A DNA stretch of 64,000 bases, taken from assembly GCA_945876565.1 (NCBI GenBank), contig CAMCOS010000010.1, positions 1,244 through 65,243 on the forward strand. Direction: 5' to 3'. This document shows, piece by piece, positions 22,166-63,698 of the stretch. The position numbers were made by a program, and so were the translations under genes. The notes under the pieces are model-generated. The model saw nothing but the letters and a program-made list of their open reading frames with translations, ran no database searches and had not been told where the DNA came from. Origin of the DNA: Lautropia mirabilis. Its GTDB lineage: Bacteria; Pseudomonadota; Gammaproteobacteria; Burkholderiales; Burkholderiaceae_B. Numbering within the stretch: position 1 is the stretch's first letter; each line of letters begins with the position of its first letter.

Positions 22166-23242
22166 CTACGAGCCCGAAACCATCCACTTAACCATCACAG
22201 CAATGTCCTCATCCGATATCTGAGGATGCGGTGGCATGGGAATTTGCCCCCATGTGCCCACGGCACCGTTCTTGACCTTTGCCGCTAACATCACCAACGC
22301 ATCGGGCTGATCTTTGTATTTGGCTGCCACCTCGGCAATCGAGGGTCCAACCATCTTGGTGTGGGCGGCGTGACAGGCAGCACAGTTATTTTTGGCGAAC
22401 AGAGCCTTTGCGTCAATGGCACCACCCCCCGCATCGGAAGCAACCACCGCGGTCATGGCCACTGGCTGATAGTCAGCACCAGGCAAAGATGACAATGGTG
22501 GCTTGGTGGTATCCGCCCCACGGTAGGGCCCAAATATACGGTTCTGCTCAGCAATGTTGTAGTGAGCATTGCGCGCATAATCAGGCAATGTCGATGTAAC
22601 GGTCACTGTCTCAACGCAATTGGTCATGCAAGTGCTACCGTTAACATCAGGCTTGCCATTGCGCTTCCACATGCCGTGTTCCAGCGTCATCCCGTTACGA
22701 TTTGGCATGCGCTCCTGAACCTCAGCGATGGTCTCATTCGACAAGACAAAGTCTTCCGGGACGATCTCACCGAGATACAACATGTAGGCCAGCACCGCAT
22801 AGGTGTCGTCAGCTGACAAGGTGCGAGGATTGGTCCATGGCATCGCACGATGGATGTAGTCCCACAGGGTCGAGACAGTGGGCACCTTCATCAACGTGCT
22901 TCGCTGAGGCTGATTAGGATCAGTCAGTGAGGCCACCCGCCCAGTCTTTTGATCCTCCAAAGTGGTTCCACCGATGATCGGTGTAAACACTTCGTTGGAC
23001 TCACCAAAAGAGCCATGGCAGCTTGCGCACTGAGCATCCCAGATGCCCATACCATCATCGACCGAGCCCGAGCCCTTGGGTAGACCCACAAAATCGGGCC
23101 GAACATCGATATCCCAGGCAATCACTTCGTTGGGGGTCGCCAAGCGACCAATACCTTCGTACGTTTTGGCATCTTGTGCCAATGCAACGCCAGCCATGCC
23201 AGCCAGCGCAAAAGATCCGATAAGCTTAGCCAACTTGAACAT
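22166..23242 (-). CDS. soxD: Sulfane-sulfur dehydrogenase diheme cytochrome subunit SoxD
   Basis: GIGRLATPNEVIAWDIDVRPD, CASCH and CAACH heme motifs, YIHRAMP and MPNRNG. Start set at ATG 23242 (MFKLAKL). Confidence 0.95.
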   Translation of the reverse strand: MFKLAKLIGSFALAGMAGVALAQDAKTYEGIGRLATPNEVIAWDIDVRPDFVGLPKGSGSVDDGMGIWDAQCASCHGSFGESNEVFTPIIGGTTLEDQKTGRVASLTDPNQPQRSTLMKVPTVSTLWDYIHRAMPWTNPRTLSADDTYAVLAYMLYLGEIVPEDFVLSNETIAEVQERMPNRNGMTLEHGMWKRNGKPDVNGSTCMTNCVETVTVTSTLPDYARNAHYNIAEQNRIFGPYRGADTTKPPLSSLPGADYQPVAMTAVVASDAGGGAIDAKALFAKNNCAACHAAHTKMVGPSIAEVAAKYKDQPDALVMLAAKVKNGAVGTWGQIPMPPHPQISDEDIAVMVKWMVSGS

Positions 23243-24605
23243 TGCTAACCTCTCCGTTTGTGCCAACCTTCCAAGACTGGATGGCGTTGTTGTGATAGAT
23301 CGAACGGGTGCCCCGAACTTCACGCAACTGGCGAATCGCCGGCTGCACATGTCCGGTGCTGTCAACCGCACGTGACTGCAGAATCGCTGGCTTACCGTCC
23401 CAAACCCAATCGATGCTAAAGCGTGTCAAACACTTATCCATGACCGGCGTCTCTAGGCGAGCCTGGCTCCAGTTTTTACCGCCATCAACCGAAACATCAA
23501 CGCGCTCGATCTTCCCGCGACCAGACCATGCCAAGCCACTGATTGCATAAAAACCCGTATTGAGCAACTGCTGACCACCAGACGGGGTGGTAATCACCGA
23601 CTTAACCTCCTGAATGGTGGTGTACTGCCGATGCAGGCCATCAGGCATCAAGTCGATGTAGTGCACTGCCTCGTCTTTTGCGGCGTAGGGCTGATCGCCC
23701 ACCTCAATACGACGCAGCCACTTGACCCAGCTCACGCCCTGCACGCCTGGCACGACCAGACGTAAGGGATAACCGTTTTCCGGGCGTAGCATCTCACCGT
23801 TCATGCCAAACGCAACCATGACATCATCTAAGGCGATGTCCATCGGGATGGTACGTGTCATGCCCGAGCCATCATTGCCCTCAGCCAAAATGTACTTGCC
23901 TTTCTTCAAGTCTGCGCCCGCCATCTCTAGCAACAGCGACAACGGCACGCCAGTGAACTCGCAACAGGACAGCATGCCGTGGGTGTATTGCACGGTGGGC
24001 ACGGCCACGTTGCCCCACTCCATGCCGGTGTTGGCACCGCACTCAATGAAGTAAAACTTCGATGTGCGTGGCAGCCGCAACAAGTCATCCATCGTGAAGA
24101 CGAGTTCTTTTTTAACCATGCCATTGATCATCAAGCGATGCTTGTTTGGATCGATGTCATACCAGCCTTGATGGTGACGCTCAAAATGCAGCCCGTTTGG
24201 GGTGATGATCCCAAAAAAGCCCTGCAACGGTGCAAACGCAACCGATGCCGCATCCACCGCGGTTAGCCCAGGCGACTGGCGGCGCTGCAGATACTTTTCA
24301 TAGATTGATGGCTCACCGTAGGGCTTTACTGCCACTGGCTGACCAAGCGTGGTTTGCCAAATCTGCTTCTCAACGATGGCAGGATCATCAGGGCCGGCTT
24401 GCGCCATGGCCTTGGCACCGACGCCCGTGGCCAAGCCTGCACCAACAGCACCTAAGAAGCTCTTGCGCAAAAACCCTCTGCGCTCTTCACTCATCCCATT
24501 GGCTGACACATCAGCCACAAACTCGGCGGGCAAAAAATTCTCGGGCGCTTTGCGCACCTGCCCGGGTATTTCAGAAAGCTTTGACTTGCTCAAGACAATC
24601 TCCAA
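23226..24605 (-). CDS. soxC: Sulfane-sulfur dehydrogenase molybdopterin subunit SoxC
   Basis: Tat motif RRGFL, ITPNGLHFERHH, FIECGAN, LRPENGYPLRLVVPG, GLAWSGRG and HNNAIQSW. Confidence 0.96.
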   Translation of the reverse strand: MEIVLSKSKLSEIPGQVRKAPENFLPAEFVADVSANGMSEERRGFLRKSFLGAVGAGLATGVGAKAMAQAGPDDPAIVEKQIWQTTLGQPVAVKPYGEPSIYEKYLQRRQSPGLTAVDAASVAFAPLQGFFGIITPNGLHFERHHQGWYDIDPNKHRLMINGMVKKELVFTMDDLLRLPRTSKFYFIECGANTGMEWGNVAVPTVQYTHGMLSCCEFTGVPLSLLLEMAGADLKKGKYILAEGNDGSGMTRTIPMDIALDDVMVAFGMNGEMLRPENGYPLRLVVPGVQGVSWVKWLRRIEVGDQPYAAKDEAVHYIDLMPDGLHRQYTTIQEVKSVITTPSGGQQLLNTGFYAISGLAWSGRGKIERVDVSVDGGKNWSQARLETPVMDKCLTRFSIDWVWDGKPAILQSRAVDSTGHVQPAIRQLREVRGTRSIYHNNAIQSWKVGTNGEVSNVQVG

Positions 24606-38988: not shown

Positions 38989-40938
38989 TTAAGCTGCAAC
39001 CGCCGGCGGACCTTTTCTCTTTTTAACAAGCTGCACCAAAGCTGCAAACGCTGCCAAGCCAAACCCGGCGAGATCGGTTGTCAATCCACCGGAGATCAGC
39101 AGGATCGAGGATGCCAACAAGACAAGACGAATCCAGCCCTTGGCCAACCCAAAATACCAGCTCTGCAGCGCCGCTGCGAGCAAGTACACACCAAGCAGCG
39201 CCGTGATTGAATAGTGAACAATCTGCCAGACATCATCACTTTGCATCAACAAGGCCGGGCTGTAAAAGAACATAAACGGCACGAGAAAGGCGGCCATACC
39301 GTATATGAACGACGTCACCGAAGTCTTCATGGGGTCACTGCCCGCAATCGCGGCACCTGCATAGGCTGCAAGCGCAACAGGCGGCGTGATGGCTGAAATG
39401 ACTGCGTAATAAAACACAAACATGTGTGCCACCAGCGGACTAATCCCAAGCTTGATCAAGCCCGGTGCGACCACGGAGGCCGCCACCGCATAAGCTGCCG
39501 TTGTTGGCATACCCATCCCGAGAATGATAGCGATCAGCATGGCGAAAACTAGTGCCATGAGCTGACTCTGACCAGCAATGTCAAGAATCATGTTTGAGAA
39601 GCGACCGCCAATGCCCGTCAATCCAATCACCCCGACAATCAATCCCGCACACGCACAAACCGCAATCAACTGAATCGTGCCCTTGGCCCCCAGATGCAAT
39701 GCATCGATTATGCCTCGCGGCCCCATACGATCCTGTATGCTGAGCCAACTCACGACCAAGGTACTAAACATGGCCAGCGTGCCAGAACGTATCACCGAAT
39801 AGCCCATCACAAGACCGCCAATCAAGATCACCAGCGGCGCAAACAAATAGACTTTCTTGAGCATCTCTGCCAGCGATGGCAGCTCGTCACTAGAAAGCCC
39901 AACCATGTTGAGTCGCTTTGACTCATTGTCGACCATGAAGTAGACCGCCAAGAAATAGAGTGCGGCCGGCAGTGTCGCAGCCACAATCAATTCAAAATAT
40001 GGAATACCCGTGATCTCGGCCATGATGAAGATACCGGCACCCATCACTGGCGGCATCAACTGACCGCCCGTTGATGCGGCTGCCTCAATCGCCGCCGCAC
40101 TGCGCGGTGGATAGCCGACCTTTTTCATTAAAGGAATCGTAAACGTTCCCGTCGCAGCCACGTTGCCCGCTGACGTTCCATTGATGGTGCCCATCAAAGC
40201 ACTGGAGAGCACCGCCACTTTGGCCGGGCCGCCTCGAGCTTTACCAGCAATCGCGAACGCAAAGTTGATGAAGTAATCACCCACTTTGGACACTTGAAGA
40301 AATGCCGAAAATGTAATGAACAGAATGATGTAGGTAGACGAAACCGCCGTCGTCGGCCCAAACACACCTTCCATGGAGTACACAAACGAGAACAACAAAT
40401 CGGGTGAAATGCCACGGTGGTACAAAACGCCCGGCATCCAGGGCCCGACCACGCAATACAGCAAAAAAATGACTGAGATGACCGGAAGCGCCCAGCCGGC
40501 ACAACGGCGAGTGATCTCGAGAATCAACAACGTACCGATGACGCCAATCACCACGTCGCCGGATGTGGGAGCCGCGCCTGCACGAAACAGCAAAAAGTCC
40601 AGATTAATCAGGATGTAAACAAAACAGGCAATGCTCGCAGCAATGGCAACCCAGTCAACTAGGGGCACACCCGTCTCGGACTTTTTGCCCATGCTGTACA
40701 TCATGAAACCAAGCGCACACCCAAACGAGACGTGAGCACTGCGATAGAGCCACGGATCCATGGGATATAGATTTAACACCAAAATATGAAAGGCCGTGAA
40801 GGCAACGCATCCCCAAAAAAATAGGTGCCTCTCAAAAGGCCTAAGCGTTCGCTGTTCACCGCCTACTTCAGCATCCTCAACAGCGTGGGCGGCCTTGGCA
40901 GTCAGGTCGGGATGCGATACCGAATCAACGTGGGACAT
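38989..40938 (-). CDS. TRAP transporter fused 4TM/12TM permease (TAXI-associated)
   Basis: RGGPAKVAV, AAASTGGQLMPPVMGA, GMGMPTTAAY and ITPPVALAAY. Confidence 0.95.
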   Translation of the reverse strand: MSHVDSVSHPDLTAKAAHAVEDAEVGGEQRTLRPFERHLFFWGCVAFTAFHILVLNLYPMDPWLYRSAHVSFGCALGFMMYSMGKKSETGVPLVDWVAIAASIACFVYILINLDFLLFRAGAAPTSGDVVIGVIGTLLILEITRRCAGWALPVISVIFLLYCVVGPWMPGVLYHRGISPDLLFSFVYSMEGVFGPTTAVSSTYIILFITFSAFLQVSKVGDYFINFAFAIAGKARGGPAKVAVLSSALMGTINGTSAGNVAATGTFTIPLMKKVGYPPRSAAAIEAAASTGGQLMPPVMGAGIFIMAEITGIPYFELIVAATLPAALYFLAVYFMVDNESKRLNMVGLSSDELPSLAEMLKKVYLFAPLVILIGGLVMGYSVIRSGTLAMFSTLVVSWLSIQDRMGPRGIIDALHLGAKGTIQLIAVCACAGLIVGVIGLTGIGGRFSNMILDIAGQSQLMALVFAMLIAIILGMGMPTTAAYAVAASVVAPGLIKLGISPLVAHMFVFYYAVISAITPPVALAAYAGAAIAGSDPMKTSVTSFIYGMAAFLVPFMFFYSPALLMQSDDVWQIVHYSITALLGVYLLAAALQSWYFGLAKGWIRLVLLASSILLISGGLTTDLAGFGLAAFAALVQLVKKRKGPPAVAA

Positions 40939-40964
40939 AATTAGAATCCATCAGATTAAAAAAT

Positions 40965-40991
40965 ACCCCTGCGACCGATGGTCGCAGGGGT
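40965..40991 (-). terminator. Terminator-like hairpin between the TAXI receptor and permease genes
   Basis: ACCCCTGCGACC-GAT-GGTCGCAGGGGT, followed by ATTTTTT on the minus strand. Confidence 0.65.
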
Positions 40992-41015
40992 TAGAACTTT
41001 GGCTTAGCTAAACGC

Positions 41016-41996
41016 TTACATGGTACCCGGATTCAGTTGAATGCCTTTCTCCTTGAAGTACTTCACAGCACCCGGGTGGAATGTCAAAAAGTCGTTCTTG
41101 GTTGCGTTCTGCGGCAATGTTTCCTTGGCAGCAGCGTGACCTTGAACCATCGCAGCATTGTTCTCCATGACCGCCTTGGTCAGTTCATACACCAGGCTGT
41201 CTGGCAGGTCCTTGTTGGCCACCGCAAAGTTATACAAGCCAACGGTGTTCATGTCGGCTGTTTGGGTACGATAGGTACCCTTGGGGATAACTGTTGGCAC
41301 GACTTCTGGTGCAGCCTGGCGAATCTTAGCGATTTCATCGGCCGTAAAGCCAAAGAACGTGACTGGACGCTGTGCCTCAATTTCAGAGAACGCAGGAATC
41401 GGTTGACCTGCTGCAAAGCAGAACGCGTCGATCAAGCCATCGCTCAGTAGACCAGCCATGTCAGAAGCGCCACCATTACGCACCGTGACTTTCATGCCAA
41501 GCGCATCAAAGAAAATCGGGAAATACGTGCCTGGTGTGCCAGCGCGAGGACCAACGCCGACGTTTTTGCCATTCAGATCAGAAAAACTCTTGAGGCCCGA
41601 GCTCTGGTTGGCCACGCACGCAAATGGTGTGTCGTACATGGGGAACATGGCGCGCACGTTTTGGTGCTTTTTACCATTTGCCCAGCCTTTGCCATTCCAG
41701 CCGTTGTAAGCAACACCCATGGTGACCATGCCCAAGTCAACGTTGTTGCCATCGACCAAGATCATGTTTTGGTTAGGGCCTTGCGTTTGCTGGGTCGAGA
41801 CGTTCACGCCGGTTTTCTCGGTCATGATGTTGGCAGCAACACCACCGTAGACAAAGTAAACACCGCCCACAGACGCAGTGCCCAGCGTCAAGCTCTTGGG
41901 CCAGCCGGACTTGTCCTGAGCCAATGCCACTGAGGACATTGAAACCGCCGCCAGAACGGCAACGGAGCTTTGAGTCAATAGTCGTGACAGTTTCAT
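41016..41996 (-). CDS. TAXI family TRAP solute receptor
   Basis: Signal peptide, LGTASVGGVYF, GVGPRAGT, PKGTY and FHPGAVKYFKEKG. Confidence 0.93.
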   Translation of the reverse strand: MKLSRLLTQSSVAVLAAVSMSSVALAQDKSGWPKSLTLGTASVGGVYFVYGGVAANIMTEKTGVNVSTQQTQGPNQNMILVDGNNVDLGMVTMGVAYNGWNGKGWANGKKHQNVRAMFPMYDTPFACVANQSSGLKSFSDLNGKNVGVGPRAGTPGTYFPIFFDALGMKVTVRNGGASDMAGLLSDGLIDAFCFAAGQPIPAFSEIEAQRPVTFFGFTADEIAKIRQAAPEVVPTVIPKGTYRTQTADMNTVGLYNFAVANKDLPDSLVYELTKAVMENNAAMVQGHAAAKETLPQNATKNDFLTFHPGAVKYFKEKGIQLNPGTM

Positions 41997-49811: not shown

Positions 49812-50001
49812 GGCAACCCTTCTGTTTATTCAGTACTGCCCTGACGTTAAACGAAAGTAACGCTCTTGTGTAGCGAGTTATTGCCTAGACAGACAAATTT
49901 GCCAGCTTCTGAACCTTACACCTCAAACTCATCCTTTAGTCTCATTGACCCCAACGTTGGCGCGAACTAGACTAAAAACCACTGATTTGATTAGGGTTGC
50001 C

Positions 50002-50838
50002 ATGAAACATCCACTTGCCTCGTGTCTTCTCGCATTAGCACCAACCCTGTGTCTGGCTCAAGAGATCCCGGATGCCCTGATTGGCGTATGGGCCACCCCC
50101 ACTTGTGCGGCGCCCGCAGACACACTGGTGATTTACAAGAACTTCTACCTGTGGCTCGGAGAAGAAGAAACTGCGCTCACTGGCTTGACTGCTTCAGCGG
50201 CGCAGCCCGACGGCTGGACAAGGCTTCAAGAGTCCGATGGTTATCCCAACTTCTTTCAAATTCAACCAGACGGGCGCCTGCGTGAAGCGTTCTTGCCCGA
50301 GAGCGCAGACAAGGCAGCAGCACCTAGCCAAGACTGGCAAACCGCTGACTACGAATCCTGCGCAAATGCATTGCCGCCGGGCAAAGTGCTTTTACATGGT
50401 GAGCCAGTGGCGCTTTTACGAGTGATCAGCAATGCTCAAGGGCTATGTGAGACGGATCGACAGGCTTGCGCGAACCAGCTTTTTGCTGGCATCGATGTCT
50501 CTGGCGATGGCAATCTAAGCGTGGCGGAAATAGCGCGGTTATTCCGGGTTGCTGGCTACGTGGCTGCCGTCGGCCAAGACACCGCCGCCAACAATGACGA
50601 TCTGGCTGGCCTCTTGGCAGCGGGACTGCCTTTGGGTCCCCTGTTGGCATCAGCAATCGTCAACTCGTTTGACTATAACAACGACAGTGTGGTGTCACTG
50701 GCTGAGTTAAGCCAGGACCGCGGAACATTGATCGAACCGTTTGAACCCAAAACTAGCTCAGCACTAAACTCAAGACTGAATCAAATGAGAGAGGCGTTAA
50801 AGCCACTGGGCCAACTACTGGATCATTTTGGGAAATAG
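50002..50838 (+). CDS. Secreted hypothetical protein with two EF-hand-like loops
   Basis: Signal peptide (MKHPLASCLLALAPTLCLA); loops DVSGDGNLSVAE (50494-50529) and DYNNDSVVSLAE (50671-50706). Confidence 0.75.
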   Translation: MKHPLASCLLALAPTLCLAQEIPDALIGVWATPTCAAPADTLVIYKNFYLWLGEEETALTGLTASAAQPDGWTRLQESDGYPNFFQIQPDGRLREAFLPESADKAAAPSQDWQTADYESCANALPPGKVLLHGEPVALLRVISNAQGLCETDRQACANQLFAGIDVSGDGNLSVAEIARLFRVAGYVAAVGQDTAANNDDLAGLLAAGLPLGPLLASAIVNSFDYNNDSVVSLAELSQDRGTLIEPFEPKTSSALNSRLNQMREALKPLGQLLDHFGK

Positions 50839-56891: not shown

Positions 56892-57872
56892 TTACTGAAT
56901 AGCCTGAATGGCACGAATGTTGTCAGCGCCAAACTCCTTGGCATACTCCGCATAGGCTGGCGTGATGGCTAGACGGAAACTGTCGCCATCGACCTGCTCC
57001 ACTACCTGCATACCATCTTGACGCAAAAGTGCAATACCGTTGGCCTCGTCATCATTGACTTTTTTGCGCTGGGCGGCAGAAGCAGCCTTAGCAGCACTCA
57101 AAAATACCTGTTTATCCGCATCAGACAGTTGATTCCAGACGCTTGGCGACAAAATCAGAACCGCAGGTGAATAGACGTGGTTTGTCAGTGACAGGTGTTT
57201 CTGCACCTGTGAGAACTTGGATGCCAGAATCACTGGAATGGGGTTTTCCTGTCCATCCACGGTGCCTTGCTGCAATGCCGTGAACAACTCGGGGAACGCC
57301 ATTGGCGTGGGCAAAATGCCGAATGTCTTGTAACCATCCATGTGCACCTTGTTCTCCATGGTGCGCATCTTCAGGCCACTGGCATCGCGAGCTTGCACGA
57401 TCGGCCGCACATTATTGGTCATATGGCGGAAACCGTTCTCTGTCCAAGCCAAGCCAACCAACCCCTTTTCCTGCATTTTTTGCAGCAGGTCCTGCCCCAC
57501 ATCCCCATCCATCACCTTGCGAGCGTGGTCGTAATCACGAAACAGGAAAGGAATGTCAACAATCTTGACCTCAGGAACAAAGTTGCCCAGTGGACCAGTC
57601 GAGGTATTCACAATATCTAGCGTGCCCAACTGCACGGACTCAATCATTTCGCGCTCGCCGCCGAGCGCGCTACTTGGAAACTGCTGGCAGGCGTAGCGGC
57701 CTTGCGTGCCCTTTCGAATCTCCTCACAAAACACCGTCGACCCTACGCCGTAATGCGAGGTCGGTGACGTGGCATAACCAATCTTCAAAACATTCTGTGC
57801 CTGCGCAGTCACACCCACCGCTGACAAAGCGGCCAAGAGTGCAGCCAGGCGCATTAATCGAGAAGCTTTCAT
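56892..57872 (-). CDS. TRAP transporter substrate-binding protein DctP (no dctQM nearby)
   Basis: Signal peptide, LGGEREMIE, PFLFRD, ENGFRH, GLKMRTM, LQQGTVDGQENP and LSLTNH. Start at ATG 57872. Confidence 0.93.
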   Translation of the reverse strand: MKASRLMRLAALLAALSAVGVTAQAQNVLKIGYATSPTSHYGVGSTVFCEEIRKGTQGRYACQQFPSSALGGEREMIESVQLGTLDIVNTSTGPLGNFVPEVKIVDIPFLFRDYDHARKVMDGDVGQDLLQKMQEKGLVGLAWTENGFRHMTNNVRPIVQARDASGLKMRTMENKVHMDGYKTFGILPTPMAFPELFTALQQGTVDGQENPIPVILASKFSQVQKHLSLTNHVYSPAVLILSPSVWNQLSDADKQVFLSAAKAASAAQRKKVNDDEANGIALLRQDGMQVVEQVDGDSFRLAITPAYAEYAKEFGADNIRAIQAIQ

Positions 57873-57992
57873 GGTCCCTCCCTGGATATCGGATTCAAGT
57901 CGGCTAACGTTAGCGCAAAAAAGTCCCCCAGGTTCCACAAACCCACAGACAAACACATAGGATTTCCCCTTAGCTACCACCCCCGAGTTTCC

Positions 57993-58931
57993 TCAAACCA
58001 ATCCGGATTTTTTCAGGGCGATCTGCGCCTTGGTCTCGTCCGTTTGCGCTCGCAATTGCTGCAATTGTGCAGCCGACGTCCTGTCCGGATTACAGTAATC
58101 AAGCTTCCAGTGCGGATCATCAGACCAGCGCTGCAGTGACTGCACTGTTGTACGGCCAGCGCGTGCCCAAGCCAGGACATCCAAGGCTAGTCTCAATGTA
58201 TCTCGCTGTGAATCCATGTCATGTGGCTTGCCCGCCGCATTGCCAAGCGGGAAATCACTGAACAAAAACCGCGGCACACCACAGTGTTCAACCACATCCT
58301 TGGCACAACCCATGATCACGGTTGATATCCCGTTGGCTTCCAGATACCTGGCCACTAGGCTCAAGGTCTGATGACAGACCGGACAATTGGCCACCAAGAC
58401 CATGGCATCCACGCCGTCTTCACGGCAGCGCTTCAAAATCTCAGGACAATCGACAGTCAAGGTATGACGCTGGCTGCGATTGGTCGGCGCACCATGAAAC
58501 CGAGGTGCCAGCGCACCGATCATGCCTTGATCGGCAAACGTCCTTAGTAACGGCAATGGAAACCAACTACCTGAATCGGTCATGTCAGTGTGCTGCCGGT
58601 CAATAGCCACATGCGCAATGCGAACGTCGTGATCCAAGGTGGCATCGCCGGAATAGACCTCGTAGAATTTGGCGCGCGCATTGTACTCGGCGCCCGGGCC
58701 CTGATCGCCTTTGTCCGGATCAAAAGGGGCAGCCGTGGTGATAAGCCCAACCACTGCCTCTGGCAAAGGCTTGCCTAGTGGGGCAAATGGCACATCGATG
58801 TAATGCGCCCAACGGTAAGGGTTGTCATAACCAAGCGCCAAGTACCATTGACGAGTTCGTTGCATGTAGGCAACCGGCACATCGAACTCATCAGCGAACT
58901 GAAGTTCAGATACGCCATTGAACTTGCTCAT
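57993..58931 (-). CDS. Glycine/sarcosine/D-proline reductase selenoprotein-B (GrdB/PrdB) family homologue, Cys form
   Basis: PLGKPLPEAVVGLITTAA, DGVDAMVLVANCPVCHQTLSLVARYLEANGISTV and VPRFLFSDFPLGN. Both Cys of CPVC are TGT codons (58385-58374). Confidence 0.8.
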   Translation of the reverse strand: MSKFNGVSELQFADEFDVPVAYMQRTRQWYLALGYDNPYRWAHYIDVPFAPLGKPLPEAVVGLITTAAPFDPDKGDQGPGAEYNARAKFYEVYSGDATLDHDVRIAHVAIDRQHTDMTDSGSWFPLPLLRTFADQGMIGALAPRFHGAPTNRSQRHTLTVDCPEILKRCREDGVDAMVLVANCPVCHQTLSLVARYLEANGISTVIMGCAKDVVEHCGVPRFLFSDFPLGNAAGKPHDMDSQRDTLRLALDVLAWARAGRTTVQSLQRWSDDPHWKLDYCNPDRTSAAQLQQLRAQTDETKAQIALKKSGLV

Positions 58932-59491
58932 GCCATCACAGGCGCACTGTAGCCCGACACAAACGACTTCGCCATGCCGCCTGACTCAGCAAACACATGA
59001 CGGTGAATCTTGCCGATGTTACCGCCATAGGCATGAATACTGATGGAGACGCGATCATCAAAGGCATTGCTAACCCGATGAACATCACCGATGGATGGTG
59101 CTGTAAACCCAATACTACCTGCCTCGAGGCGCTCTAGCTCACCAGTGGGTGTGGGTGGCGAATCGCCATCAATGTTATACGCCTGAGAAATCTCCGCACC
59201 ACGCAACATGCCGATCACACCCCAGACCGTGTGGTCGTGAATCGGCGTGGATTGACCCGGCCCCCAGACAAAACTCACCACCGAGAAACGGTCGTTGGGA
59301 TCGGCATATAGGCAATACTGCTGATAAAACTGCGGATGCGGCACCGCCATGCTTTGCGGCAACCAGTCATCTTTGGCCACCAACTCGCGCATGGCATCAC
59401 CAAGCTCAGGCCAAAAATCCGGCCGCGCCTCGCCACCACCCTCAACCAGCCGATCAAGACTGGCAATAAAACGATCTAATGCTTCTGGCAT
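58928..59491 (-). CDS. mdo: Gln-type thiol dioxygenase (3-mercaptopropionate dioxygenase / CDO family)
   Basis: DDWLP, YQQY, FSVVSFVWGPGQSTPIHDH (His-x-His), DVHRVSN (third His) and SISIHAYG (Ser-His-Tyr triad). Confidence 0.88.
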   Translation of the reverse strand: MPEALDRFIASLDRLVEGGGEARPDFWPELGDAMRELVAKDDWLPQSMAVPHPQFYQQYCLYADPNDRFSVVSFVWGPGQSTPIHDHTVWGVIGMLRGAEISQAYNIDGDSPPTPTGELERLEAGSIGFTAPSIGDVHRVSNAFDDRVSISIHAYGGNIGKIHRHVFAESGGMAKSFVSGYSAPVMA

Positions 59492-59581: not shown

Positions 59582-60313
59582 TTAATCCCCGGCGCGGTAC
59601 TTCGCAATCCGTTCGTTCAAGCCGGGACTCACCACCGACCTCACCAGATCAGCCAAATCAGCGTCATCGGTGTCCTCGCTTAAGACCTGATAAAGCAGAC
59701 GCCTAGCCTCAGGCGACAATGTGATCGCAGCCTCGTGCTGTTGTTGCACCACTGCCTGCCAGCGTCCCGTATCGACTAACTCGGACACCAGACCTGAGGC
59801 CAAGGCATCTGGCGCGGACAACGTCTGTGCCACCTGCTGTATCTGGCGGGCTCGCTCCCGCCCCACGAGCTGTGCAAGCCGCCTCGTACCCAGCACCAAA
59901 CCGAACTTTAAGCCCGGCATCCGAAACGTCGCATCAGCCGCAGCCACCCGATGCTTGCAGACAGCCATGAGATCCACCCCTGCACCAAAATTCTTGCCAT
60001 GCACCAGTGCCACGGTCAATGCTGGCAGGGCATGCAAGCGCTGCAGCATCTGTTCAATGCGCACAAAGCGCCACAACAGATCTCCTTCACTTGACTGCTC
60101 AATGTCACCAAAGTCAAAACCTGCACAGAAGTTTTTACCCTCACCACGCAGCACCAGTAGGTCGGCCTGCTCAACGCGGGCTTGATCAATCACTTCAATA
60201 AGTGACTCCACCAATTCAGCGTCAAGTGCGTTACGTTTGTCTGGCCGATTCAACGTCAAGGTCCAAACCTTTGATGCTTTGTCGACTTTGTCGACGATTA
60301 AGCTTGTGCTCAT
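59582..60313 (-). CDS. Crotonase (enoyl-CoA hydratase/isomerase) superfamily protein, non-canonical active site
   Basis: LTLNRPDKRNAL, FCAGFD, FGAGVDL and FRMPGLKFG; ATGA overlap with the CoA transferase gene. Confidence 0.9.
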   Translation of the reverse strand: MSTSLIVDKVDKASKVWTLTLNRPDKRNALDAELVESLIEVIDQARVEQADLLVLRGEGKNFCAGFDFGDIEQSSEGDLLWRFVRIEQMLQRLHALPALTVALVHGKNFGAGVDLMAVCKHRVAAADATFRMPGLKFGLVLGTRRLAQLVGRERARQIQQVAQTLSAPDALASGLVSELVDTGRWQAVVQQQHEAAITLSPEARRLLYQVLSEDTDDADLADLVRSVVSPGLNERIAKYRAGD

Positions 60314-61464
60314 CGCCACTGCTCGAAGACCTCATCGTTATGCGCCCCAAGGGCAGGCGGAGCCCGCCTGATCGGCATAGCCTGACCATCAAATTGAACG
60401 GGCGAGGCAAATGTCTGTGTGCGTACCCCGTTGGGCAAGGTAATGTCTTGCACCCACTGCATGTGCTTGACCTGCTCATCGGCCAATACCTGCGAGTAGG
60501 TATTAATCGGTGCACATGGCACACCGGCACTGCGAAACCGCTCAAGCCATGTATCGGTGTCAGATTCTGCAAAGATGGCTTGCAACATGTCACGCAACAC
60601 AACTTGATGCTGCGCTCGAAGCGTGGGGCTCAAAAACCTGGGGTCTTCTGTCCAGCCGGGCTGGCCAACCACCTTGCAGACTGACGCCCACAAGGCATTA
60701 TTGCCCGCGGCCATGCCAAAGTAACCGTCACGGCACTTGAATGCCTGATAAGGCGCATTACGAGGATGCGCCGAACCTAACTTGACCGGATCTTTACCGG
60801 TACCAAAATACTCAGACGTCTGCAAGGCCGCAATGCCTAATGTGGCACCCAGCATCGGCACATCGATGTGGGTACCTTGGCCGGATGCTTGCGCCAACCG
60901 TAACGCACACACCACTGAAAAAGCGGCATAAAGACCCGCAGAAAAATCGGCCAACGGCACACCGCACTTTACCGGATCCCCACCCGCTTGCCCAGTCACA
61001 CTCATGATGCCACTCATGGCTTGCACCGTCAGATCAAAGCCGCCTTCAGCCGCACGCGGGCCGGTCTGTCCATAGGCCGAGATCGAGGCCATGACCAATG
61101 TCGGGTTCAGGGACTTCAGTGTGCTGTAGTCTATGCCAAGCCGACCCATGACGCCTGGCCGATTGTTTTCGATCAGCACATCAGCCGTTTTGACCAGCAA
61201 CTTGAACCGTGCAAGGTCATCCGGATTTTTAAGATCAAGCGCAACCGAACGCTTGTTACGATTAAGCGCTGCGAAGTTTTCGCTATAGCCATCAGAGATC
61301 GGTGGCCAGCTGCGCATAGTGTCGCCCCCACTCGGATTCTCTACCTTCACGAGATCTGCACCCATGTCAGCCAGCAGCATCCCGCAAAATGGCCCAGCCG
61401 CAACGTTACAAAGTTCAATGACTCTCACGCCGTCAAGCGGTAATGGATGGGATAGAGGCTGCAA
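60310..61464 (-). CDS. Family III CoA transferase (CaiB/BaiF)
   Basis: LDGVRV, AGPFCGMLLADMGAD, NRNKRS, ENNRPG, ISAYGQTGP and GVPLADFSAG (catalytic Asp). TTG start behind GAGGAG. Confidence 0.95.
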   Translation of the reverse strand: MQPLSHPLPLDGVRVIELCNVAAGPFCGMLLADMGADLVKVENPSGGDTMRSWPPISDGYSENFAALNRNKRSVALDLKNPDDLARFKLLVKTADVLIENNRPGVMGRLGIDYSTLKSLNPTLVMASISAYGQTGPRAAEGGFDLTVQAMSGIMSVTGQAGGDPVKCGVPLADFSAGLYAAFSVVCALRLAQASGQGTHIDVPMLGATLGIAALQTSEYFGTGKDPVKLGSAHPRNAPYQAFKCRDGYFGMAAGNNALWASVCKVVGQPGWTEDPRFLSPTLRAQHQVVLRDMLQAIFAESDTDTWLERFRSAGVPCAPINTYSQVLADEQVKHMQWVQDITLPNGVRTQTFASPVQFDGQAMPIRRAPPALGAHNDEVFEQWR

Positions 61465-61567
61465 AGTTTTTCTCCTCAAAATCTCATGAAACACACAGGC
61501 AAGCCAATATTATCCTAGTGGCCGGCCTAATAGAACCACCGGATTTAAGTTGTCGTTCGCCACACCC

Positions 61568-62470
61568 ATGACTGCGCAATCACTGTCGATCGTTGACGTC
61601 GCACTGCTTTCATTTGTCAGTCTGGTCTGGGGAATTACCTTTCCGGTCATGAAGCTTGGTCTGCAGAGCTACCCACCGATTACGTTTCGTGCGCTCTCTA
61701 TCATCATCGGTATCGCAGCCGTAGGCCTGTTTTTGCTCATGCGCGGTCAGTCGCTCAAGATTGCACCTGCTGAACTGAAAAAACTCTTTGCCATTAGCCA
61801 GATCAACCTGACCGCTTGGCAAATGGGTTTGCTGTATGGTGTCATTCTGATGGGGGCTAGCCGCGCAGCGATTCTCGGCTACACCATGCCAGTCTGGGCA
61901 TTTGTGGCGAGCGTGTTGATGTACAAAGCACCTGTAAACGAACGTGGCCCGATTGGCGTCACCCTTGCCATGCTGGCAGTCGGTGCGCTGACCTTAAATG
62001 ACTTTTCACAGTTTCTTGCTGCGCCAACTGGTTTGGTTATCCTGGTCGCCGCTGCCATGTGCTGGGGCGCAGGAACGACCATGATTCGCCATACACCCCT
62101 ATCAATCACCAACGAGTCCATGGCATTTTGGGGATTGATTTGGACCTTGCCTGCGTACGTCATTCTGACCTACTGGTTCGAGAGCCACTTGTGGCGCTGG
62201 CCCAACTTTGCTGAGACCCGGACTATGTTGTACGGCGGTCTGGTGACTTTCTCGTTTTGTTACGTGTTCTGGTACCGGCTCTCCAGAAAACTGCCGCCCG
62301 TGGTCAGTAACCTATCGGTCATGCTGGCACCCGTGATCGGCGTTATTAGCAGCGCAATCAGCCTAGTTGAGCACGTCTGAGCCTCGGGCTGGCTTGCACT
62401 TGCATTGATCATCGCGGCCATGGCCGTGGTTCTGCTACCAGCACAAGTCTTTAAGCTCAGACAACGCTAA
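61568..62470 (+). pseudogene. EamA/DMT transporter with a premature TGA before the last TM helix
   Basis: WGITFP...YTMPVW...PVIGVISSAISLVEHV*ASGWLALALIIAAMAVVLLP...*. TGA at 62378-62380; the frame continues to TAA at 62468-62470. Confidence 0.75.
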
Positions 62471-62837: not shown

Positions 62838-63698
62838 TCATTTGCTGCGCGTGACCAGCCAAACCCCCATGACCGTCACAATCGTGCCAAGCGCCACCCA
62901 CAGCGACAAGCGTTCATCAAACAACATCCAGGCCATGACAGACACCGTCGGTGGCGTCAAATAGATGAGGCTACTGACGCGAGTGGCTGCGCCTTGACGC
63001 AGCAACACGATCCACAGACTCATGGCACCAATTGACAAGAACAACACGCTCCAGAGCAGCGCACCGATTAGCTCTGCAGTCCACTGTACAGTCATGGGTT
63101 CAAAAGCCATCATCAAGCAAGCTGTCACCACCGCGCTGGCAGCATACTGAATCATGGTGCCAGCCCGCAGGTCAAACATGGGACAAAACCTTTTCTGATA
63201 GATGGTGCCAGCGGTAAACGAAACCAGGGCAATAAAACACAGCACCACGCCCCAAACTGATACGCCTGCAAACTCGAGCTTATCAGCCAGCACAATCGCG
63301 ACACCGCTAAAGCCAAAAATCAAACCTGCCCACTGACGTGCGCTGACCTTCTCGGCCAAACGTGCCGCCAAGAATGCCGTTAAAACTGGCTGCAAGCCCA
63401 CGATCAGTGCGGTTGGTCCCGCTGGCATGCCAAGTTTGATGGCCGTCCATACGCCGCCCAAATAGCCAACGTGCATCAACAGCCCAGCAACCGCAATGTG
63501 TAACGCGCTCCTGGCATTGGGCCACGTTGGCCGCCACCACAAACTTAAGGGCACCATAACGGCAAGAACGCCCACAAAACGCATGGTCAGAAATGTCATG
63601 GGGTCGGTGTACGGCATGCCGTACTTAGCCACAATAAACCCCGTACTCCACACCAAAACGAACAGCGGACCTGACCACGCAATTGATAAAGTTGGCAC
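62838..63698 (-). CDS. EamA/DMT family transporter
   Basis: WSTGFIVAK, YLGGV, IVGLQPVLT, GTIYQKR and SLIYLTPP. Confidence 0.93.
   Translation of the reverse strand: MPTLSIAWSGPLFVLVWSTGFIVAKYGMPYTDPMTFLTMRFVGVLAVMVPLSLWWRPTWPNARSALHIAVAGLLMHVGYLGGVWTAIKLGMPAGPTALIVGLQPVLTAFLAARLAEKVSARQWAGLIFGFSGVAIVLADKLEFAGVSVWGVVLCFIALVSFTAGTIYQKRFCPMFDLRAGTMIQYAASAVVTACLMMAFEPMTVQWTAELIGALLWSVLFLSIGAMSLWIVLLRQGAATRVSSLIYLTPPTVSVMAWMLFDERLSLWVALGTIVTVMGVWLVTRSK

Follow-up and report, generated by a model that had tools for sequence, protein, structure and literature searches.

A crotonase lacking both catalytic glutamates, encoded between a family III CoA-transferase and a 3-mercaptopropionate dioxygenase, as a candidate 3-sulfinopropionyl-CoA desulfinase

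Introduction

3-Mercaptopropionate (3MP) is a common marine and sediment thiol, formed from DMSP and by the addition of sulfur to acrylate. The compound is a precursor for polythioester biotechnology (PMC6370202). In Variovorax paradoxus TBEA6 and Advenella mimigardefordensis DPN7, the dioxygenase Mdo yields 3-sulfinopropionate (3SP), from which Act or SucCD forms 3SP-CoA. The Advenella operon encodes a CoA-transferase III (MIM_c31380), the desulfinase Acd (31390) and Mdo (31400) (PMC5373536). The Acd of these organisms (AcdDPN7/AcdA) has an acyl-CoA dehydrogenase fold with FAD, and its operon slot is between or beside a family III CoA-transferase and Mdo. Schurmann et al. are said to have described AcdDPN7, in 2015, as a beta-oxidation scaffold whose catalytic bases were lost and in which Arg84 is essential. 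To our knowledge, this flavoprotein route is the only described route from 3MP to propionyl-CoA.

The crotonase superfamily holds several systems with which the present locus can be compared. In classical hydratases, the first of two glutamates is directed at C3 and the water molecule, and the other one deals with the proton at C2. The cai system of Escherichia coli acts on betaine substrates and combines a family III CoA-transferase (CaiB), a crotonase that is a normal dehydratase (CaiD) and an AMP-ligase (CaiC). The methylmalonyl-CoA decarboxylase of E. coli (YgfG/ScpB) is a crotonase that expels CO2 to give propionyl-CoA, a reaction of which desulfination would be the sulfur analogue. EchA6 of Mycobacterium tuberculosis is a non-catalytic acyl-CoA shuttle.

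Here we describe an atypical crotonase of Lautropia mirabilis, the gene cluster in which it is encoded, and related loci in other genomes. Coordinates refer to the window, which is the whole stretch of 64,000 nucleotides that was analysed.

The crotonase and its active-site motifs

The crotonase, P0001 (243 aa), is encoded on the minus strand at positions 59582..60313, stop codon included, and was recognised as an ORF matching Pfam ECH_1 at 1.2e-31 (110.4 bits, above the gathering cut-off of 27), in agreement with the first-pass annotation of this ORF. The ATG start codon (60313-60311) and the TGA stop of the CoA-transferase gene upstream overlap as ATGA. A longer ORF call would use a GTG at 60319 as an alternative start, and the ATG is favoured because homologues start with MS.

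The oxyanion-hole motifs that had been noted earlier are present as FCAGFD at residues 62-67 (F62-C-A-G-F-D67) and FGAG at residues 109-112 (F109-G-A-G112). The oxyanion-hole residues, A64(-G65) and G110-A111-G112, lie in motifs that are both conserved and intact, and the CoA-binding RPxxxNA motif is intact as well. The cysteine of FCAGFD is no conserved feature, C63 being replaced by Ser in 70 of 85 relatives. The first-pass annotation had further read Asp and Gly in place of both catalytic glutamates, and the phmmer alignment to Metallosphaera 5ZAI, which retains both (GGGLEL / LPEINLG), confirms this: D114 of the GAGVD motif (G110-A-G-V-D114; codon 59974-59972) falls on the first Glu and G134 of the MPG motif (M132-P-G134; codon 59914-59912) on the second.

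The protein thus shares the crotonase fold, the RPxxxNA motif and the two backbone-NH oxyanion motifs with classical enoyl-CoA hydratases (EC 4.2.1.17; rat mitochondrial ECH, 5ZAI), but carries Asp in place of rat Glu144 and Gly in place of Glu164, and its loop after the second site is three residues shorter. Its place in the crotonase / ECH_1 superfamily is supported by the Pfam score, the oxyanion motifs and the spiral beta-beta-alpha fold of its model. None of its 71 NCBIfam matches reached the respective cut-off; the best was PRK07854 (119 bits against 237), and the methylmalonyl-CoA decarboxylase model NF008506 gave 76.1 bits against 257. With both glutamates replaced throughout the family and no NCBIfam hydratase model near its cut-off, the earlier view that this is not a standard hydratase is supported.

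The surrounding operon

The cluster consists of five co-oriented minus-strand genes, encoding a CoA-transferase, the crotonase, a thiol dioxygenase, a PrdB/GrdB-like protein and a DctP protein. The first gene (60310..61494, minus strand) encodes a family III CoA-transferase of the SUGCT/YfdE (dicarboxylate) type (Pfam CoA_transf_3, 7e-123), whose nearest PDB relatives are SUGCT, YfdE and formyl-CoA transferase, and this enzyme probably makes the acyl-CoA used by the crotonase. The dioxygenase gene begins 90 nt downstream of the crotonase gene (58928..59491, minus strand). Comparison with solved thiol dioxygenases by phmmer places its product in the 3MDO clade as a 3-mercaptopropionate dioxygenase (Mdo), with E-values of 2e-58 for Pseudomonas aeruginosa 3MDO (4TLF/3USS), 1e-51 for A. 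vinelandii 6XB9 and 4e-63 for R. eutropha 4QMA, against only 8.5e-9 for mercaptosuccinate dioxygenase and about 1e-4 for mammalian CDO. In the resulting order of CoA-transferase III, crotonase and Mdo, the crotonase holds the slot that Acd occupies in the Advenella operon.

The start of the fourth gene (57993..58931, minus strand) overlaps the mdo stop codon, an arrangement of translational coupling. It encodes a selenium-free PrdB/GrdB-like protein (TIGR04483 at 2.4e-23, which is far below that model's cut-off; GRDB Pfam at 0.0018) and is single-copy in this genome. The last co-oriented gene (56892..57980, minus strand) encodes a DctP-type TRAP solute-binding protein (Pfam DctP, 6.7e-89), a candidate binder of the organic-acid substrate, and no DctQ/M genes lie beside it. 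A TAXI-type TRAP system is found 15 kb off, at 38989-41996 (minus strand), with an NMT1_3 binding protein and a 649-aa DctM-containing membrane protein. EamA-family transporters encoded at 61550-62380 (plus strand) and 62838-63698 (minus strand) flank the operon and are candidates for import or export of thiol, sulfinate or sulfite. Elsewhere in the window, the product of an ORF at 49945-50838 (plus strand, 297 aa) gave weak EF-hand matches only, below the Pfam cut-offs.

An Acd-type desulfinase was sought in this genome with the NCBIfam model NF042439 (EC 3.13.1.4; cut-off 600 bits), and none was found among the six full-length acyl-CoA dehydrogenases scored, which reached at most 205 bits. 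P0001, as a crotonase, itself falls outside this class, whose members have the acyl-CoA dehydrogenase fold with FAD and score at least 600 bits. The genome has prpB-prpC. It also encodes a SorA-like sulfite-oxidase-family molybdoenzyme (23226-24605, minus strand; Oxidored_molyb and Mo-co_dimer), followed by a c-type cytochrome (22166-23371, minus strand). These two, 35 kb from the operon, are likely a SorAB sulfite:cytochrome c oxidoreductase.

Conservation and structure of the family

All 85 sequences taken from related loci carry D114 and G134. When 1.84 billion cluster representatives were searched with a profile, 354 matched at E <=1e-30 and 25,741 at 1e-10. Among 139 representatives of 50%-identity clusters, a set based on the best 138 full-length profile matches (34-57% identical to the query), Asp114 is kept in 137 and Gly134 in 138. 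Other near-invariant residues are specific to the family, namely R82 (134 of 139), R235 (132), E87 (127), S226 (124) and Y239 (112). The crotonase conforms to the family signature GAG[AV]DL ... [FM]PG..FG..LGTRR, and the database name of every member is 'enoyl-CoA hydratase/isomerase family protein'.

As judged from these alignments, Asp114/Gly134 is a family signature and not drift, and strong purifying selection maintains the two residues throughout at least 150 50%-identity clusters. Such selection, combined with intact oxyanion and CoA motifs, points to an enzyme with altered chemistry rather than a decayed one. Helix 3 carries the near-invariant Glu87, a possible relocated base, and the roles that we give here and below to R82, E87, R144 and R235 are guesses from conservation.

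The nearest solved protein is PDB 3ISA of Bordetella parapertussis (phmmer E 7e-72), a crystal structure deposited by structural genomics in 2009 under the name 'putative enoyl-CoA hydratase/isomerase'. It has GAGVDL and RMPGLKFGLVLGTRR motifs identical to those of the crotonase, belongs to the same family and differs from it in nothing of substance. The AF2 model of the crotonase (pLDDT 84) fits 3ISA with a TM score of 0.94, an rmsd of 1.3 A and 52% identity over the structural alignment. Fits to other crotonases have TM scores of 0.76-0.84, the best being to proteins with a folded-back C-terminus (ECI2, EchA6 and CarB). In the model, the C-terminal helices likewise fold back on their own subunit, with an rmsd of about 3 A to ECI2, EchA6 and CarB and about 15 A to classical hydratases. 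A full-text literature search, in which the Acd literature was partly covered, found no description of this crotonase family's function and no paper on 3ISA.

Gene orders in related loci

We compared 80 loci, taken from one-genome-per-species contigs (Orrella, Achromobacter, Bordetella, Variovorax, Ramlibacter and others), by all-ORF clustering with GC3 as a guide. A CoA-transferase gene lies directly upstream of the crotonase gene in 78 of them; the two others have no clustered CoA-transferase ORF, and one of these begins at a contig end.

In the Orrella type, the order is EamA, EamA, CoA-transferase, crotonase, Mdo, PrdB-like protein and DctP, so that the EamA genes keep their flanking position and the DctP gene stays beside the module. 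The PrdB/GrdB-like gene occurs, among the 80 loci, only in this layout (L001-L004, L006-L009 and L047). In the Variovorax type, the order is CoA-transferase (60% identical), Mdo and crotonase (41-43% identical, with Asp and Gly kept), and the genes overlap. The Achromobacter/Bordetella type accounts for about 60 of the 80 loci (an example is L014:8745-11814, plus strand). Its upstream part consists of Mdo, IclR, a FAD/NAD-binding protein (minus strand) and TctC (minus strand), followed by CoA-transferase, crotonase, a divergent family I CoA-transferase-like A/B pair and an AMP-ligase. The A/B pair matches Pfam CoA_trans (3e-20 and 1e-14) and no NCBIfam model.

The presence of this pair and the AMP-ligase after the crotonase hints at a longer pathway. 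The idea that they are required partners was rejected for the genome studied here, in which the pair has no homologues; the crotonase therefore does not need the pair. The layout of CoA-transferase, crotonase, family I pair and ligase recalls the logic of CaiB/CaiD/CaiC or of IpdAB/EchA20. Like cai, the Achromobacter-type operon has an AMP-ligase that could prime the CoA cycle. The pairing of a type III CoA-transferase with a crotonase is common to cai and the present module as a matter of established knowledge, and on the sequence side the likeness consists of weak NCBIfam matches. We also considered the dca/BaaR adipate operon of Brucella (IclR, family III CoA-transferase and enoyl-CoA hydratase), which resembles the Achromobacter layout, and rejected it as this module because its genes, which include a fused hydratase/dehydrogenase and an acyl-CoA dehydrogenase, serve beta-oxidation.

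Co-occurrence with Mdo and distribution of Acd

Kinship among the genomes makes them non-independent observations, and the scoring in each genome covered a part of the candidates; the counts that follow are therefore descriptive, and absences of Acd or of the crotonase are soft. Among 151 genomes of the same GTDB family, 75 carry Mdo and 72 the crotonase, and 65 carry both (36 expected); a further 10 have only Mdo, 7 have only the crotonase, and 69 have neither gene. Direct neighbours in 21 of these genomes, the two genes lie within 17 kb of each other in 22 more. A sample of 251 genomes from the same order gave 27 with the crotonase, 39 with Mdo and 22 with both (4.2 expected), and 12 genomes from seven further families have the two genes side by side. 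Adjacency thus extends over at least eight GTDB families and three orders (CoAT-ECH-Mdo, CoAT-Mdo-ECH and Mdo-CoAT-ECH, where CoAT is the CoA-transferase and ECH the crotonase). That the linkage recurs in three gene orders and in different families is a stronger argument than the co-occurrence counts. In 12 sampled genomes, the crotonase is present but no close Mdo accompanies it.

Acd exceeded its cut-off in 3 of the 151 same-family and 2 of the 251 same-order genomes. It is therefore rare in the sample (5 of about 400 genomes), whereas the crotonase is a common partner in Mdo-positive genomes (85 of about 111, with Acd in 5). In genus g73, the two proteins are split between species, one with Acd only and one with the crotonase only (G216 and G404), and genus g98 offers the same picture (G381 and G241). 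Strict mutual exclusion was nevertheless rejected, as two sampled genomes, G112 (L134, L135) and G122 (L132, L133), carry both a CoAT-a-Acd-Mdo and a CoAT-b-Mdo-ECH module. Among the sampled loci, the CoAT-Acd-Mdo layout was met only in these two. The Acd and crotonase modules are hence parallel and not strictly alternative. In G112 and G122, the Mdo copies of both modules belong to one subfamily (50-65% identity in all comparisons). The Acd-linked CoA-transferase belongs to another subfamily than the crotonase-linked one, with which it shares only 34-36% identity.

Proposed function

The first-pass annotation had suggested that the substrate of the crotonase is a sulfur-bearing acyl-CoA supplied by the neighbouring CoA-transferase, and the genomic context strongly backs this idea through the ATGA coupling, the pairing in 78 of 80 loci and the linkage and co-occurrence with Mdo. 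Of the two reactions then offered, desulfination is the better fit, by analogy with the Acd slot. Beta-elimination from a sulfinate is chemically doubtful because sulfoxylate, rather than sulfite, would be released. We tentatively propose that the crotonase is a non-homologous, crotonase-fold 3-sulfinopropionyl-CoA desulfinase and a functional analogue of Acd/AcdA, an assignment that we consider plausible though short of probable. Its substrate and products would be identical to those of AcdDPN7/AcdA, for which the function has been shown, on an unrelated, cofactor-free fold. While the signature, conservation, fold and gene linkage are direct observations, we infer the substrate, the product and the residue roles.

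The module would then serve 3MP catabolism with three genes, the crotonase being the third enzyme. Mdo would convert 3MP to 3SP, the coupled family III CoA-transferase would convert 3SP, a succinate look-alike, to 3SP-CoA, and the crotonase-fold protein would cut the C-S bond of 3SP-CoA to give propionyl-CoA and sulfite. Loss of SO2 to give propionyl-CoA would be the sole cofactor-free, redox-balanced fate of 3SP-CoA. In the proposed active site, the thioester would be held in the intact oxyanion hole, and Asp114, at the place of Glu144 facing C3, would protonate C3 while SO2 departs. The sulfinate would be held by a family-specific Arg, R82 on helix 3, perhaps with R144 or R235. The C2-side glutamate would be dispensable, hence Gly134. 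Alternatively, the reaction may proceed stepwise through an enolate. Propionyl-CoA would enter the methylcitrate cycle and sulfite would be oxidised by the SorAB-like enzyme; with prpB-prpC and this enzyme in the genome, both products could be handled.

The desulfinase reading is favoured by the position of the crotonase in the Acd slot, the absence of Acd among the acyl-CoA dehydrogenases scored in this genome and the placement of Mdo in the 3MDO clade. It also gains from the pattern of active-site changes, in which an acid is kept on the C3 side (Asp114), the C2-side acid is lost (Gly134) and conserved arginines are added. AcdDPN7, likewise a beta-oxidation scaffold that reportedly lost its bases and relies on an Arg, offers a parallel. 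Further points in favour are the prevalence of the crotonase and the rarity of Acd in the sampled Mdo-positive genomes, and the split of the two between species of genera g73 and g98. Several points weigh against it. Crotonases stabilise a C2 carbanion, and the sulfinate of 3SP-CoA is on C3, so that protonolysis at C3 would have to proceed without help from an enolate. The decarboxylase YgfG/ScpB differs in this very respect, since its leaving group is on C2 and the enolate is stabilised directly, and its sequence match is weak. Given the low identity of the Acd-linked and crotonase-linked CoA-transferases, their sharing of a thioester product is an assumption. About 60 of the 80 loci have the extra family I pair and AMP-ligase, and the 12 genomes without a close Mdo likewise count against the reading. 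The strict analogy with Acd is further weakened by G112 and G122, which carry both modules, so that the two third enzymes could differ in function.

The main rival, which we hold to be unlikely though chemically attractive, is a one-base beta-elimination (retro-Michael) by a C-S lyase that releases acryloyl-CoA. The CoA-transferase would here activate 3MP, thioethers like 3,3'-thiodipropionate or 3-sulfopropionate; Asp114 or Glu87 would take the C2 proton, the oxyanion hole would hold the enolate, and thiolate or sulfite would depart without a second acid, with Mdo detoxifying the freed thiol or working upstream. E1cB elimination is native crotonase chemistry as generally understood, and one base suffices for it, which fits the loss of one Glu. 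From a chemical point of view, 3MP-CoA, a thioether-CoA or 3-sulfopropionyl-CoA can readily lose thiolate or sulfite, and acryloyl-CoA is the product of the second-best solved relative, the 3-hydroxypropionyl-CoA dehydratase 5ZAI. For V. paradoxus TBEA6, a beta-elimination of TDP-CoA by crotonase-type proteins was proposed by Heine et al. (2019; PMC6370202). The two EamA proteins flanking the operon, taken as exporters, and the further steps suggested by the CoA-transferase-like pair and ligase of the Achromobacter-type operons would also agree with elimination. However, the module has no conserved hydratase or reductase for acryloyl-CoA, and the tight coupling of the three genes, Mdo included, mirrors the known Mdo-Act-Acd order. 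A dicarboxylate-type CoA-transferase moreover fits 3SP better than a monocarboxylic thiol. Nor is an enzyme that oxidises sulfinate to sulfonate conserved, and the sulfinate itself would give sulfoxylate.

It is improbable that the crotonase is a non-catalytic or hydrolytic partner, either an acyl-CoA binder or shuttle like EchA6 or a thioesterase acting on the CoA-transferase product. Of the solved relatives that have been characterised, EchA6 comes next after 5ZAI (E 4.5e-25, about 30% identity); it is similar in length, shares the shortened GL.L...RRL loop and is, like the crotonase, devoid of the two classical glutamates. It is encoded in an unrelated gene context, however, and has no conserved Asp, the alignment placing a Gln where the crotonase has its Asp at the catalytic position. 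An EchA6-like non-catalytic crotonase would be expected to have no conserved active-site acid or base, whereas Asp114 is near-invariant. That Asp114, Gly134, R82 and the oxyanion glycines persist down to 34% identity would be unexpected for a passive binder, and a hydrolase placed right after a CoA-transferase would create a futile cycle.

A hydratase or isomerase of the usual kind whose base has moved elsewhere (e.g., to Glu87, found in 127 of the 139 representatives), acting on a non-sulfur dicarboxylyl-CoA and linked to Mdo for regulatory reasons or by coincidence, has equally little to commend it, because adjacency and co-occurrence with Mdo in at least eight families and three gene orders go far beyond coincidence and no acyl-CoA dehydrogenase that would supply an enoyl-CoA is conserved in the module, even though single-Glu isomerases occur in the superfamily, the folded-back C-terminus of the model resembles ECI2-type isomerases and a close Mdo is missing from 12 of the sampled genomes with the crotonase.

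We hold somewhat more loosely than the assignment of the single enzyme the extension of desulfination to the whole family. It is conceivable that all of its members, at least 150 clusters and 3ISA among them, are cofactor-free, C-S-cleaving desulfinases which, with the CoA-transferase, form the prevalent 3MP/3SP route of Burkholderiales, Acd being a rare variant. If so, the crotonase superfamily would gain a reaction type, desulfination at the beta-carbon. If the crotonase does free sulfur, the main natural 3MP pathway has so far been unannotated, the 2009 structure 3ISA would receive a function, and a new bond cleavage could be recognised by a simple signature (Glu to Asp, Glu to Gly, and a conserved Arg).

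Mdo modules lacking the crotonase

The Advenella layout of CoA-transferase, Acd and Mdo was expected in Mdo-positive, crotonase-negative genomes, and this expectation was rejected, as most of them differ. The usual companions of Mdo there are a rhodanese protein, as in the P. aeruginosa type, a LysR regulator, or genes of unrelated kinds. In five such loci (L100, L101, L104, L107 and L108), Mdo is followed by a protein of 530-560 aa. That of L101 contains four rhodanese domains, as does the protein beside P. aeruginosa 3MDO, and this arrangement is a third kind of Mdo module.
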